DNA of 52,756 nucleotides from a virus. Every line of letters starts with the position of its first letter. The first letter of the stretch is position 1. The stretch covers positions 1-52,756 of IMG/VR virus record IMGVR_UViG_3300009983_000001; one strand, given 5' to 3'. Shown here piece after piece: positions 30,279 through 34,801 of this stretch. The notes under the pieces were generated by a model. The model saw only the letters and a list, made by a program, of their open reading frames with translations, was not told where the DNA came from and did no database searches. The translations under genes and the position numbers were made by a program.

Positions 30279-32141
30279 TCAGTCTTCCCACTTCCCGAAA
30301 CGTTGTGCTTCCCAAGCGTCGGGCACCTTAATTGGCCACGGTTGGCCGTCTTCGCATACCGCCCAAGCTGGCAGCGGCCGCACGCAATCCATATAACCGG
30401 CAATGCTGCCGACCCCCTCCGGTATCTCACACACTTGTTCGTCATGAGTGTGCATTATGACTGGATAGCCGGCACGCTCCAAACGCAATAACGCGTCGGC
30501 TTGAATCTCCCGGCACATGTGGGAGATGACGTTTTGTGTTTGAACCCCGCCGTACAGCGACATTCGCACCCAACCTATTTTGCCCTTCGTTGCATTCGAG
30601 TTACTTCCCTCGTAACTCATCTCGAATTCCCATGGGCTTGCATAGTTGCGTTGCGAGGGGGTCAGGCGTGGCGCGTGATAGCGAATGAAACCGCCGGAGG
30701 GCGGCCGGCAATACAACACGTCTTCATGTACTTGATACAAAACCCCAAGGCGCGAGCCGGGGTTCGAGTTGAAGCATTCACCGGGTTGCAGGATCGCCGA
30801 TATGGCTGCGCCTTCGAGCCCGAATAAAAGTTGCTGTTCGTCGTGCTTAAACTTATTGATGGTTTGGCCACCCCAAAACTTGACAATATTGGGGATAGCG
30901 TCGCGCGTCTTCAATACCACGGCTTTGATTGCATCGTCATCACCGAGTAGATCGTCAGCGCCGAATCGCTTCCAACCATTCACCCACGCGCCGAAGTCTG
31001 CCGACAATACCGCCAGCTTGCCGAGCTGCCGATCGTCGTGGTGCTTGCCGTGCTGTTTCTTGTACGCTTGGTACTCTTCGACCGACTTACCCGTCAGCAA
31101 TGCGGCTTGCGCTTCGTAAATCTTACCGTGGGTTCTGAACACGTCAATACGCCATTGCTCGTTAGCCATGCAAGATGTTGCGACCGCCTGTATAGCGGTG
31201 AAGTCCGCAGACATCAAACGGTGCCCCGGCTTGGCAATGATCATCGAACGCAGGCAGCTTGCAACTACTTCGAGGGCATCTAACGCGCCGTTGTTCTTTG
31301 GATCGAGCGCCCACGCGGACCCCTCGCCGTATTCGTATTCGAGCAATTCAATAGATCGGCAACGGATGATTGCGAGCGCGTGCTCGACTTGTTCGGGTTT
31401 TGAAAAAACGCCCTTGTATAAGTTGGCAGGCTGCACGCCTCTACCGTTCCACAGTGAGGTGTGTGCGCCGTAATAGGTGTATTGATCGTAAAGCCGACCC
31501 GACGCTGTCGTCTGCGATCTAAACGCGTAATACTTTTTGCAACTACCAAACGCGAGGATTTGCCGGATACGCAAGACACGCAACACGGCGGGCGGGTAGT
31601 CGGTGCGCTTCAATGCGTCGGCAAGTGTGTCTTCGTCAAGCTCGTAAAGGTAAACGCCTTGCGTGCGCATCCATTCGAGCATTTTTGCGACTTCTGTTGA
31701 CTTCTGCACCGCATGGTTTGTTATTTCACGCAGCTCGCTGTTGTAGCGCAACTCGGCTTGCTCAATGATGACAATGCAATCTTCGACCGCTGCGGTATCG
31801 ACTTGCATGCCGCGCATATTGATGCGCAAGTCGAGCTTCCACACATCTTGCTCGCGCGGCGTTAGATCGGGAACACGGGCACTAACGTGCGCCTCGGTCA
31901 CGATGTCTTGCTTGTTGTATTCGTAGAACCGCGCGAAGTCATCGGCGGCCGTGAATGGTGTCCAGCGCAACGACTGATTTGCCTTCGTGGGTTTCTTCGG
32001 CATTGTCAGCTTGCGAATTAGATCGCTGCCGGCTTTATCTTTTTGTTGCGATACGTTCAACACTGCGCCGAGTTCGCCAAGTGCGCCGGGGTATGCGGAC
32101 GCGCGAGCCTTCGCGGCGCTGCAATGTGCTTGATCGGTCAT
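30279..32141 (-). CDS. Family-A DNA polymerase, large fragment (Exo III motif plus polymerase domain)
   Basis: 620 aa. YNKQDIV (Exo III-like), motif A-like SADFTAIQAV, motif B-like RQLGKLAVLSADFG, motif C MHTHDE. Confidence 0.8.
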   Translation of the reverse strand: MTDQAHCSAAKARASAYPGALGELGAVLNVSQQKDKAGSDLIRKLTMPKKPTKANQSLRWTPFTAADDFARFYEYNKQDIVTEAHVSARVPDLTPREQDVWKLDLRINMRGMQVDTAAVEDCIVIIEQAELRYNSELREITNHAVQKSTEVAKMLEWMRTQGVYLYELDEDTLADALKRTDYPPAVLRVLRIRQILAFGSCKKYYAFRSQTTASGRLYDQYTYYGAHTSLWNGRGVQPANLYKGVFSKPEQVEHALAIIRCRSIELLEYEYGEGSAWALDPKNNGALDALEVVASCLRSMIIAKPGHRLMSADFTAIQAVATSCMANEQWRIDVFRTHGKIYEAQAALLTGKSVEEYQAYKKQHGKHHDDRQLGKLAVLSADFGAWVNGWKRFGADDLLGDDDAIKAVVLKTRDAIPNIVKFWGGQTINKFKHDEQQLLFGLEGAAISAILQPGECFNSNPGSRLGVLYQVHEDVLYCRPPSGGFIRYHAPRLTPSQRNYASPWEFEMSYEGSNSNATKGKIGWVRMSLYGGVQTQNVISHMCREIQADALLRLERAGYPVIMHTHDEQVCEIPEGVGSIAGYMDCVRPLPAWAVCEDGQPWPIKVPDAWEAQRFGKWED

Positions 32142-32263
32142 TTGCCGTCTGAGGGTTTAGTAGGTTTAGGTTTTGCGTGATGTATAAGCCATTCATGTTC
32201 AAGCGCATCTACGCGTAATTGATACCAGAAAAAATCCCACTCGCTAGGAGTAGATTGGCTCAT
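32138..32263 (-). CDS. Micro-ORF 4 between the polymerase fragments (41 aa)
   Basis: MSQSTPSEWDFFWYQLRVDALEHEWLIHHAKPKPTKPSDGK. ATGA overlaps at both ends. Confidence 0.4.
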   Translation of the reverse strand: MSQSTPSEWDFFWYQLRVDALEHEWLIHHAKPKPTKPSDGK

Positions 32264-32451
32264 GACTGCTTACCCTCAGATTCACGTGGTAAGCGCACAA
32301 TCCCATAACCCTTTGCTTGCAGCTCTCGCAACAGAATCAATCCGCGATCTATATAGTCACCGCAATTTTTATCTTCCGAGACGATCCGAACTATCTGACC
32401 AAAGCGCCAAGCCTCGTCATTGTTTGGCTGGTTGTCATAGGTGAGTATCAT
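32260..32451 (-). CDS. Micro-ORF 3 between the polymerase fragments (63 aa)
   Basis: ORF track 32260-32451. ATGA overlaps at both ends. Confidence 0.5.
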   Translation of the reverse strand: MILTYDNQPNNDEAWRFGQIVRIVSEDKNCGDYIDRGLILLRELQAKGYGIVRLPRESEGKQS

Positions 32452-32663
32452 GATGTTGGTTCTCCTGCCTCAAGAGGTTGTAACCGAGCCAGCAGCGATC
32501 TGTTGGTCTCGTGGTGGCAAGCTGCATCGCCATTACCCTTGTTGATTTGTGGCGTATCGCAATACTGGCCAGCGCGCAGATAACAGCAATGCCAGCTAGC
32601 ACAACGAACAGGGCGGTTCGGCAAATCTCCGCGCTGCACTCTAGTGACATTTGGCACTTTCAT
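32448..32663 (-). CDS. Micro-ORF 2 between the polymerase fragments (71 aa, Cys-rich)
   Basis: ATG at 32663 within ORF 32448-32720. ATGA overlaps at both ends. Contains CASWHCC...C...C. Confidence 0.4.
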   Translation of the reverse strand: MKVPNVTRVQRGDLPNRPVRCASWHCCYLRAGQYCDTPQINKGNGDAACHHETNRSLLARLQPLEAGEPTS

Positions 32664-32851
32664 GACTGGGAATCTCGTGTGGTCTTCGGTGAGCGGTACG
32701 GAGGCTCGGGCTCTAACCAAAGCCGCCCGCGTCCAAATTCATCGACGCAGTAAAACTCTTGTTCAAGACGCTCAGGAACAAGACTGGCGTTCGGTGTGTA
32801 CGTGCGAAAATTGCCAGTCGGCCGCTTCTCAATGAACTTGTGATCTTCCAT
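32660..32851 (-). CDS. Micro-ORF 1 between the polymerase fragments (63 aa)
   Basis: ATG at 32851, preceded by ggagagaag. Confidence 0.45.
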   Translation of the reverse strand: MEDHKFIEKRPTGNFRTYTPNASLVPERLEQEFYCVDEFGRGRLWLEPEPPYRSPKTTRDSQS

Positions 32852-32879
32852 CACTGCTTCTCTCCGTCTGTAAATGGTT

Positions 32880-33383
32880 TCATAGGGGCGGCAAGCCTTG
32901 GTCGTCGCAATGAAACGGGGGCCAGCCTAACACCGGCACGCAATGAACATTCCACACAACCCATTCAAAGTTAACGTTGTGCGCTTCGAGTTGGCCGCCG
33001 GCTGCAACGTGTTCGAGTAAGTGCCACGGGTGCAACCAATGGCCGTTTAAGTGATTGCGGTCTAGTGGCGTGTAACGTGGGTATGACTTGTAAGGTATCG
33101 ACGGATGAGGCCGCCACCATTGCACGCCGTTGCCGTCTTTGAGATTCCACGCGACTGACAACACCTCAAAGCTGTGATGCTCGACGTAATTACGCGTACC
33201 TACCGCTTTGAGGCCGCGATTTTGGTCTGACAACCCCGGCAGCGACTCCCACTTCTGTTGTAGATGATTCCACACAAGGCCCGCTTCACTGTACGTTTCA
33301 AAGTCCACGTCGGGCAGTATTGTTGCAAGCCCGATGCCCGCAACGTATTGAGTGCCAGCGCGCGCGAGATGCCAATCGGTCAT
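32880..33383 (-). CDS. Family-A DNA polymerase, small fragment (3'-5' exonuclease Exo I/II motifs)
   Basis: 167 aa. DVDFETYSEAG (Exo I-like DxE) and HNVNFEWVVW (Exo II-like). Ends where homologous single-chain enzymes would continue. Confidence 0.7.
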   Translation of the reverse strand: MTDWHLARAGTQYVAGIGLATILPDVDFETYSEAGLVWNHLQQKWESLPGLSDQNRGLKAVGTRNYVEHHSFEVLSVAWNLKDGNGVQWWRPHPSIPYKSYPRYTPLDRNHLNGHWLHPWHLLEHVAAGGQLEAHNVNFEWVVWNVHCVPVLGWPPFHCDDQGLPPL

Positions 33384-33601: not shown

Positions 33602-33621
33602 GATAGAGCCTTCGCCCATCT

Positions 33622-33683
33622 CCCCGCTGTTGCTCGTTAGTTTCGTGCCATGTAGACAAGTCTTACATCGAGTAACAGCGGGG
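33622..33683 (-). other. 15-bp-stem hairpin downstream of the SSB region
   Basis: ccccgctgttgctcg ... cgagtaacagcgggg (1 mismatch) with a 32-nt loop. No U-run follows. Confidence 0.35.
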
Positions 33684-33693
33684 CGGGACTCAA

Positions 33694-33790
33694 CTAGAAC
33701 GGGATATCGTCATCGAACGCAGGATCGTATGGGTACATGCTGCCGGGGTAGAGATACCCCGGCAACCTACCGTTCACGATGCCCTCAAAG
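33694..33790 (-). promoter_or_regulatory. Candidate +1 recoding site CTT_TGA and the 30-codon +1-frame extension ending FDDDIPF
   Basis: Minus strand reads atg gtg agg CTT TGA ggg. The +1 frame is open only from inside this site and reads EGIVNGRLPGYLYPGSMYPYDPAFDDDIPF*. Confidence 0.45.
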
Positions 33791-34801
33791 CCTCACCATA
33801 TGCCCTGCGGCGATCATGGCCGCATCCACCCACCCGTTCTGTCGGAACGCCTCATAACGTCCTCCCTGTGGGTTTGCCATGCGATAGCCAGCCGGCGCGC
33901 CCAATGGGTCGAGGGCTGCTGCGGGAGGCGCTGCGGGGGCCGTGGGCACGCCCGGTGCTGCGCCCGCCGCTGGTGGGGCAATAAAGCTTGGGGAAGGCGA
34001 TACGGGCACCGGAGCCGCTGCGGCAGGTGTCGGCGCTGTCATCGGTGTGGCTGGGGGCACGTTCGCAGCCGGAGGCCCTGTGGGCGTCGCTGGGGCACCC
34101 ATTGGGACGCCGGCAGGCGTGGGGCTCGCTGGCACGCCCGGAGCGGCGGCAGGGAACGCAGCGGCACCCACGGGGGCCGCCGTCACACCGGCAGGCAGCG
34201 CGGCACGTCCGAAGCCTACGGCACGCGGATCGGGGCCGCTTTGGATTTCCTTGTCGGGCGCTCGAAACGCAACCATGTTGTGATTGACGTACACGCCGGG
34301 CTTTTGAGCGTTGCCGTTGCCTTCGACGGTGCCTAACACCTCAATCCAGAATCCGGGCTTGACGAGACCGGGCTGCAACATCGGGTTGCCTTGGGCGTCG
34401 AATATTTTCGCAGGGAACATCGAGCTGAATTTTACAATCCAGCAACCGGCGTGCCCTTCGCGGTCGGAGTTCTTGCGGCCATTCTGGTTTGGGATTTGAC
34501 TGTCGCCATCTTCAATTTTCCACGCGAAGTTAGGCGAACCGGTCTGACCTTGCGGCCATGCTGCATTAGCAATTGCAAGAATCTGCGAACCCCATGCCTC
34601 AAGCCACCATTGCGCTTGCGTCTTTTGAATCGCAACGGCGAAGTAGTAGCGCACGGTAGGCTTGCCAGCGTTGGCCCCTGACTTAACCGTCAGTGGCGCG
34701 CCTTGCATGTCCTTGTCTTGGCCTTCGTACAAGCTGCCTTGAACGAGACGGCCGGGCGGAAATAGAATGGTGTTTGCGTTTTGTGTAGCGGGTGCGTTCA
34801 T
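33785..34801 (-). CDS. ssDNA-binding protein candidate (T7 gp2.5/DUF2815-like core plus Pro/Ala/Gly linker), 0-frame product
   Basis: 338 aa next to the Cas4-like nuclease, with a long PAG-rich linker. An SSB-type tip DDDIPF lies just downstream in the +1 frame. Confidence 0.55.
   Translation of the reverse strand: MNAPATQNANTILFPPGRLVQGSLYEGQDKDMQGAPLTVKSGANAGKPTVRYYFAVAIQKTQAQWWLEAWGSQILAIANAAWPQGQTGSPNFAWKIEDGDSQIPNQNGRKNSDREGHAGCWIVKFSSMFPAKIFDAQGNPMLQPGLVKPGFWIEVLGTVEGNGNAQKPGVYVNHNMVAFRAPDKEIQSGPDPRAVGFGRAALPAGVTAAPVGAAAFPAAAPGVPASPTPAGVPMGAPATPTGPPAANVPPATPMTAPTPAAAAPVPVSPSPSFIAPPAAGAAPGVPTAPAAPPAAALDPLGAPAGYRMANPQGGRYEAFRQNGWVDAAMIAAGHMVRL

Follow-up and report, generated by a model that had tools for sequence, protein, structure and literature searches.

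A very probable prfB-type +1 frameshift site in the SSB (single-stranded DNA-binding protein) gene of an uncultured phage clade, with a host-like acidic tip in the shifted frame

Very few +1 programmed frameshifts are known from bacteria, and frameshifting at a CUU-stop site has been catalogued only for prfB, all such cases in RECODE being prfB genes (PMC10885494). At the prfB site, a slowly decoded stop codon occupies the A site while the peptidyl-tRNA-Leu moves its pairing from CUU to UUU (PMC10885494; PMC2790909). The nearest phage precedent in a 2016 review is the Listeria phage PSA, where +1 P-site slippage adjoining a stop codon (tail shaft) yields, in a set ratio, a second product with an extended C-terminus (PMC5009743). 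Here, we describe a locus in a stretch of viral DNA of 52,756 nucleotides (nt), the IMG/VR record IMGVR_UViG_3300009983_000001 from position 1 to 52,756. This whole stretch is called the window in the following, and all coordinates refer to it. The SSB gene (SSB, single-stranded DNA-binding protein) of this phage and of its clade very probably holds a conserved prfB-type +1 programmed frameshift, by which one gene would yield an SSB without and an SSB with an acidic C-terminal tip.

The C-terminal tip of SSBs is of interest for its partners. In the case of E. coli SSB, the last 9 residues are described in one account as the partner-binding element (PMC7913777). The acidic tail of T7-type SSBs is a binding element for the polymerase and the helicase and competes with single-stranded DNA (ssDNA) for the binding cleft (PMC5686142; PMC10359462). 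The four structurally characterised T7-type SSBs treated in the Enc34 paper all have such an acidic C-terminal partner-binding tail in frame (PMC5686142).

The SSB of the window is arranged differently. Its 0-frame product ends in GHMVRL and lacks an in-frame acidic C-terminal tail; the acidic tip is present in the +1 frame only. The elements of the site are the following, the first of them taken from the list of open reading frames (ORFs):

33785..34801, minus strand: 0-frame SSB coding sequence, 338 amino acids (aa) plus TGA
33785..33790, minus strand: proposed shift site, with the slip codon CTT at 33790-33788, the stop codon TGA at 33787-33785 and a TTT run at 33789-33787
33694..33786, minus strand: +1-frame extension read from 33786, 30 codons plus TAG, translated as EGIVNGRLPGYLYPGSMYPYDPAFDDDIPF and then the stop
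33697..33714, minus strand: acidic tip DDDIPF, the same as the bacterial SSB C-terminal tip, the +1 product ending in FDDDIPF

In the minus-strand reading and in the ORF list, the 3' end of the 0-frame encodes ...AAGHMVRL with the codons ATG GTG AGG CTT TGA, and the +1 frame runs to a TAG at 33696-33694 on the same strand. An earlier note on this DNA had given the same SSB end at CTT TGA and the same +1 frame leading to FDDDIPF, and both matched exactly on re-reading. The same is true of the TGA which, according to that note, closes the +1 frame just upstream; it lies at 33795-33793, inside atgGTGAgg. Because of this upstream stop, a switch of frame is possible on AGG or on CTT only.

For these observations the earlier note had offered two explanations, namely programmed +1 recoding into two isoforms or a one-base homopolymer error (TTT instead of TT), and it had proposed to compare the same site in related phages. 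DNA of relatives was drawn from IMG/VR, JGI metagenomes, GTDB genomes and individual assemblies, giving 25 distinct clade loci with about 39-94% protein identity. In all 25 loci, the last residues of the 0-frame are ...[G]HMV[R/K/H]L, and the final codon CTT precedes a stop codon, which is TGA in 14, TAA in 7 and TAG in 4 cases. Likewise in 25/25, an open +1 frame begins with the base after CTT, extends over 8-32 codons and closes with an acidic IP[F/Y] C-terminus. The tip reads DDDIPF in 13 loci and EDDIPF in three, and the remaining versions occur once each (DDEIPF, EDEIPF, DEDIPF, DDPIPF, DDSIPF, DAPIPF, DADIPY, VDGIPF and DGIIPY). Often it is preceded by F, as in E. coli, and the subclade of the window matches this as F-DDDIPF. 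Judged on these sequences, the recurrence of site and tail is far beyond chance. The comparison thus strongly supports programmed recoding into two isoforms, as site, +1 ORF and acidic tip are found together in every relative.

The same comparison refutes the homopolymer error. If the TTT run were due to faulty sequencing or assembly, or to an indel that is recent and private, the true gene would simply continue in frame to DDDIPF, and a single window would leave this standing, since homopolymer errors are common. However, the same 0-frame stop is found in the 25 loci, which come from many independent metagenomes and assemblers, and in the 54 clade proteins among the best 120 homologs listed (about 39% to 87% BLASTP identity to the window SSB), all of which stop at the same residue, ...MV[R/K/H]L. 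An in-frame continuation or fusion of the tail was seen in 0/54 of these proteins, and no fused homolog is among the best 120 and the best 150 relatives listed. Furthermore, the identical 338-aa SSB is present on 6 contigs from JGI, ENA and Logan assemblies, the longest of which measures 52,774 bp, close to the 52,756 bp of the window. We consider an error of this kind to be practically out of the question.

Important insight can be gained from the codons around the site. The last leucine, Leu(-1), is encoded by CTT in 25/25 loci, compared to 11% CTT among the other Leu codons of the same genes. Similarly, Val(-3) is GTG in 25/25 loci, compared to 38% GTG among the other Val codons. The other invariant residues with degenerate codons within the last 40 codons (Pro-40, Gly-38, Ala-37, Pro-36, Gly-34, Gly-26 and Tyr-23) are encoded by 2-4 codons each; synonymous sites are therefore saturated in this sample. 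As in prfB, CUU is followed by U (CTT_T in 25/25 loci), and CUU_U is the sole conserved element between the upstream +1-frame stop and the 0-frame stop. The base following the 0-frame stop is T in 0/25 loci. As a U at this +4 position is reported to lower termination read-through (PMC5289835), its avoidance fits a weakened termination context.

A second constrained element lies just upstream of the slip codon:

33794..33797, minus strand: GGTG, invariant, separated from CTT by a 3-nt spacer (an Arg/Lys codon); candidate Shine-Dalgarno-like stimulator

The earlier note had proposed GGUGAGG as the Shine-Dalgarno-like element, and only the first part of it is conserved. What the relatives have in common is the block (A/U)UGGUG, set off from CUU by 3 nt as in prfB, whereas GAGG falls on the variable Arg/Lys codon. 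This codon, which takes the E site while CUU occupies the P site, can be AAG, AAA, AGG, CGN or CAT, with AGG in just 4/25 loci. GGUG can be paired with 16S 5'-CACC-3' over 4 bp, extended to 5 bp where an A follows (17/25 loci). The invariance of GTG at this place argues for a role of GGUG at the nucleotide level.

Regarding the tail itself, substitutions within tail subgroups were counted by +1-frame codon position, and third positions had 383 against 203 and 167 at the other two, i.e. about twofold more. Between the window and its closest distinct relative (L007), 5/5 differences in the tail are silent in the +1 frame, whereas in frame 0 each would be non-synonymous. The linker from the shift site to the tip differs between subclades in both length and sequence, and the frame is kept through its indels. 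Purifying selection on the +1 ORF is strongly supported by these substitution patterns.

As a rival explanation, the tail could be made separately, by reinitiation or from a non-canonical start, as a free DDDIPF micropeptide acting as decoy for the host SSB partners; some of the tails contain an internal ATG, GTG or TTG, and a free tip peptide could in principle compete. However, independent initiation cannot explain the 11/25 tails in which ATG, GTG and TTG are all absent, and where such starts do exist, their position is not conserved. In all loci, nothing interrupts the +1 frame as far back as the shift site, and some tails have just 8-9 aa. A separate peptide would also leave the invariance of CTT and the exact position of the stop unexplained, making this a distinctly unlikely explanation. 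No promoter-like or terminator-like site was found between the 0-frame stop and the tail stop.

To which protein would the tip be attached? With the profile collection, the gene product matches PHROG 7011 ‘Gp2.5-like ssDNA binding protein’ with E = 3.4e-58. The Pfam scan gave no family at E <= 0.01, PF10991 included, and a precomputed PF10991 match is present on two homologs only. As a sequence search against the PDB returned nothing meaningful, a fold search was used instead, with an AlphaFold2 model built on 52 homologs. The best Foldseek matches of this model were the Enc34 ORF6 SSB (5odl, E = 7e-10), the DUF2815 structures 4jg2 and 4klk, and T7 gp2.5 (1je5), the OB-fold variant being shared with T7 gp2.5 and Enc34 ORF6 at a Foldseek probability of 1.0. 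By predicted fold and by the PHROG match, the gene product is assigned to the SSBs of the T7 gp2.5/DUF2815 type with a gp2.5-type OB fold. Along the model, with confidence given as predicted local distance difference test (pLDDT), three parts can be distinguished:

34259..34774, minus strand: OB-fold ssDNA-binding domain, aa 10-181, pLDDT mostly >90, the part that aligns to the Enc34 and gp2.5 structures
33908..34255, minus strand: Pro/Ala-rich linker, aa 183-298, low-confidence, pLDDT ~40-48
33788..33907, minus strand: conserved C-terminal mini-domain, aa 299-338, pLDDT ~95

The linker, variable in length among homologs, is probably disordered according to the model. The mini-domain is predicted by AlphaFold2 as strand, two helices and strand (E306-308, H316-321, H326-331 and E335-337), with ...MVR as the final strand. 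It is found throughout the SSB subfamily, including the cultured phages SppYZU01, CP-T1 and BcepB1A. The earlier note had called the annotated C-terminus probably wrong. The annotation is indeed incomplete, but the 338-aa form is probably a real product, because it ends with a confidently folded mini-domain. As a separate observation, the SSB subfamily (1,552 cluster representatives; P0053-P0267 and L131-L133) ends in a mini-domain of ~40 aa, ...YE.[FY]...GW[TS]D..L...G.M.., after the Pro/Ala-rich linker. This ending of a gp2.5-like subfamily conflicts with the general statement that all phage SSBs have acidic C-termini.

Outside the clade, the combination disappears. CTT before the stop was found in 0/58 more distant homologous loci, and a comparable tail, in any frame, also in 0/58. 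Non-SSB matches to the 21-nt site pattern in IMG/VR included none with such a tail. Nucleotide BLAST of the locus against GenBank phages gave no match, and tblastn retrieved distant cultured relatives only (<=43% identity, OB domain only), none with the site. In the case of the cultured relatives Shewanella phage SppYZU01, Vibrio phage CP-T1 and Burkholderia phage BcepB1A, the protein consists of OB domain, linker and mini-domain, and the acidic tip is absent. A profile search of 1.84 billion cluster representatives delimited the family to 1,552 representatives, in which the frameshift clade collapses to one or two. An acidic IPF tip in frame was seen in none of the best 150 of these 1,552, a few of which end in a short non-acidic ...IPF or ...PY (P0263, P0124, P0155 and P0213). 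By these comparisons, the tail appears to be a clade-specific gain on a subfamily otherwise without an acidic tail.

This distribution also bears on whether the tail could be a dead relic, i.e. whether an acidic tail, once in frame, was severed when the ancestor of the clade gained one base, leaving the downstream part as untranslated 3' region (3' UTR). An ancestral tail is conceivable, as the characterised T7-type SSBs have their acidic tails in frame. However, the sister groups have no tail, which points to a gain and not to a relic. Moreover, despite saturated synonymous sites, 25/25 loci have retained an open +1 ORF and the tip, indels preserve the frame, third positions are biased, the 5/5 changes between close relatives are synonymous, and CTT is fixed against its 11% background. 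A relic is therefore very unlikely.

The clade consists of uncultured soil phages of about 50-55 kb. One relative was binned in a Pseudobdellovibrionaceae metagenome-assembled genome, which may be a binning artefact. IMG/VR was also scanned for CTT-stop followed by ...DDIPF-stop, and no second gene family is among the matches listed. The matches listed (L134-L330) are ordinary in-frame phage ssb genes, whose D-F-D(D)DIPF is frequently written gaC TTT GAt..., placing CTTTGA out of frame near the tip. This coding explains most pattern matches and is a trap for motif searches for prfB-like sites.

We infer actual shifting by ribosomes, the ratio of products, the role of GGUG and the function of the tip from these genes, and picture the steps as follows. 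A P-site +1 slippage would take place at CUU, the A site being occupied by the stop codon; peptidyl-tRNA-Leu would re-pair from CUU to UUU, and decoding would resume with GAG in the +1 frame. The invariant GGUG, 3 nt upstream of CUU, may pair with the 3' end of 16S rRNA and stimulate the shift. Most ribosomes would presumably terminate and give the tip-less 338-aa protein with OB fold, disordered linker and mini-domain. Some would shift and give a 368-aa protein, with 30 extra residues ending in FDDDIPF. A set, probably sub-stoichiometric share of the SSB subunits could then dock the SSB-interacting replication and repair proteins of the host on phage ssDNA, or compete for them. The tip is more likely aimed at these host proteins than at the phage's own enzymes, because sister phages with the same replication genes have no tip. 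As is commonly argued for programmed frameshifts, that no lineage has fused the two frames suggests selection for the ratio of tip-less to tip-bearing protein, or for sensitivity to termination efficiency. A ratio governed by RF2 activity, as the earlier note had suggested, does not hold as the general logic, as 11/25 relatives use TAA or TAG.

The same protein would result if RNA polymerase slipped on the T run, or if a special tRNA decoded CUUU as a quadruplet, and phages sometimes encode tRNAs. But the run is only T3, and for transcriptional slippage to be productive, about 6 or more identical bases are required. In the case of a special tRNA, ARAGORN finds no tRNA gene in the 52.7-kb window. 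In addition, the stop directly after CTT in 25/25 loci fits pausing at the A site and is needed neither by transcriptional slippage nor by quadruplet decoding. Both routes are thus highly improbable compared to P-site slippage.

Regarding RNA structure downstream of the site, the window has one candidate within the tail:

33739..33766, minus strand: 12-bp hairpin within the tail coding region, core GCCGGGGTA / TACCCCGGC, beginning 19 nt past the TGA; the 70-nt fold has z = -5.6

This hairpin is built from Pro-Gly...Pro-Gly codons and is kept in the closest subclade only (L002, L007 and L122). It may modulate frameshifting locally, or may be incidental. Some of the other subclades carry different strong hairpins in the tail region. 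Downstream RNA structure as a universal stimulator was rejected, as none is present in L009, L120, L124, L126, L128 and L129.

Several points weigh against prfB-type shifting as proposed here. Since there is no universal downstream stimulator, the efficiency of the shift could be low. The GGUG stimulator candidate has just 4-5 nt, and its register is 2 nt off the pairing of Shine-Dalgarno and anti-Shine-Dalgarno in prfB; placed in the prfB register, AUGGUG gives 4 discontinuous pairs with 3'-UCCUCC-5', which is just at the threshold of FSscan (pairing criterion from PMC2790909). As the 25 loci belong to one clade, simple binomial probabilities overstate their independence and P values come out too strong; the saturated neighbouring synonymous sites are the better argument. 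The tip-less relatives are evidently viable, so that the tip would be accessory and its role conjecture. Finally, the clade has no cultured member, and the shifted product is a prediction from gene comparison.

Beyond the tail, a further structure was detected at the end of the gene:

33614..33688, minus strand: gene-end hairpin, inner helix 33674-33683 / 33622-33631 (CCCCGCTGTT / AACAGCGGGG), outer GTCC / GGGC

In the window it starts 10 nt past the tail stop and is single-copy. An equivalent GC-rich helix of 10-15 bp (5' CCCCGC... / ...GCGGGG 3') with co-varying arms is found in about 22/25 loci, and L123 and L126 have U-tract terminators 5-9 nt past the tail stop in its place. The helix starts at a median of 11 nt past the tail stop, regardless of whether the tail has 8 or 32 codons. 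Because of this near-constant distance, the gene-end structure tracks the +1 stop and not the 0-frame stop. Equivalents were seen in L001, L002, L005, L006, L008, L009, L013, L014, L019, L020, L120, L122, L124, L125 and L127, showing compensatory changes in the arms, a variable apical region of 16-60 nt, the outer GUCC/GGGC and a conserved 3' flank ..GGGGA(A/G)AUGGGC... In the window, the 3' arm holds GGGGAG, and after the arm comes the ATG (33619) of the next ORF. The hairpin could therefore sequester the ribosome-binding site of this ORF, or might serve as mRNA-end stabiliser or processing site. Ribosomes at the tail stop, which would be frameshifted ones only, would stand ~10 nt from the hairpin base, which raises the idea of a coupling between frameshifting and downstream expression. 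Of the Rfam families, none reached its gathering score within the window, and around the site no credible match came up at E <= 1.

Regarding the neighbouring genes, a DUF2800 PD-(D/E)XK exonuclease lies upstream of the SSB gene, and a family-A DNA polymerase and a helicase lie downstream; the surroundings are those of a replication module of a phage. For the DNA polymerase, the gene is split into two ORFs of the same frame on the minus strand, 32880..33383 (167 aa) and 30279..32141 (620 aa). In its relatives the polymerase is a single gene of 760-796 aa, of which the residues to ~152 and from ~154 fall on the separate ORFs. The insert (window 32136-32909, ~774 nt) is clean, has stops, and contains only small ORFs without PHROG matches. 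The same split is present in another assembly of the same phage (L130). No Rfam intron match was found in the insert, and its structure is not unusual (z = +0.4). An intron that has escaped recognition or a mobile insertion could account for it, or the polymerase could genuinely consist of two pieces.

Going beyond the site itself, we lean, with some reserve, towards a wider reading: that this is the first conserved CUU-stop +1 frameshift outside release-factor genes, and that it is a dosing device for a host-tip mimic on the SSB, plugging phage ssDNA into the host SSB interactome or competing for it, with a tip-bearing fraction that rises when host release-factor activity is limiting. If true, the shift would compete with termination and thereby link phage recruitment of replication and repair proteins to the translational state of the host. 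A second, independent and deeply conserved use of CUU-stop, with all three stop codons and a minimal GGUG, offers a natural comparison set which could show the true requirements for CUU-stop slippage. It also suggests a way to set the stoichiometry of the partner-docking tip of an SSB. The locus clearly exemplifies how a phage protein can take over the host SSB C-terminal (SSB-Ct) motif in exact copy, apparently written in what sister phages use as 3' UTR. In practical terms, gene callers truncate the protein: all 54 database proteins end in ...MV[R/K/H]L, so that the functional tip is invisible in current protein databases. No published report of a frameshifted SSB was found by full-text searches of the literature, and the 2016 Atkins review (PMC5009743) does not include SSB.

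Compared to prfB, the similarities are that CUU is preceded, at a distance of 3 nt, by a purine-rich element containing G, here the stimulator candidate GGUG, and that the functional C-terminal part lies in the +1 frame. The differences are that the gene encodes a phage SSB and not a release factor, so that there is no autoregulatory loop, and that UAA and UAG are used besides UGA (11/25), so that the sensor would not be RF2-specific. In addition, the upstream element is GGUG with another pairing register, where prfB has AGGGGG or GGAGG, and the 0-frame product is a complete folded protein, where that of prfB is a short peptide. In the case of phage PSA, the slippage occurs on a proline codon in genes for structural proteins, with a pseudoknot for the capsid gene; here the slip codon would be CUU, the protein is one of replication, and no downstream structure is universal.

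Recoding of a replication gene into two isoforms with a common core, and with a C-terminal partner-binding module present or absent, is familiar from tau and gamma of E. coli dnaX. There, the shift is -1 on A AAA AAG, flanked by a Shine-Dalgarno element upstream and a hairpin downstream, and shifting gives the shorter product; the SSB shift would be +1, and its shifted product is the longer, tip-bearing one. By analogy, the ratio of tip-less to tip-bearing SSB would be comparable in logic to tau/gamma.

Among the SSBs, T7 gp2.5 and Enc34 ORF6 share the PHROG class but have their acidic, aromatic-ended tail in frame and directly after the OB domain, whereas the SSB described here has a long linker and a mini-domain, and its tip is reached through a +1 shift only. 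As in the bacterial SSB-Ct (...DFDDDIPF), an identical D-D-D-I-P-F stands at the very C-terminus after a flexible segment. Unlike there, the tip would sit on a non-homologous gp2.5-type domain and would be made by recoding only. Altogether, the novelty lies in the gene family, in the use and in the relaxed requirements for the signal, while the mechanism as such is known.

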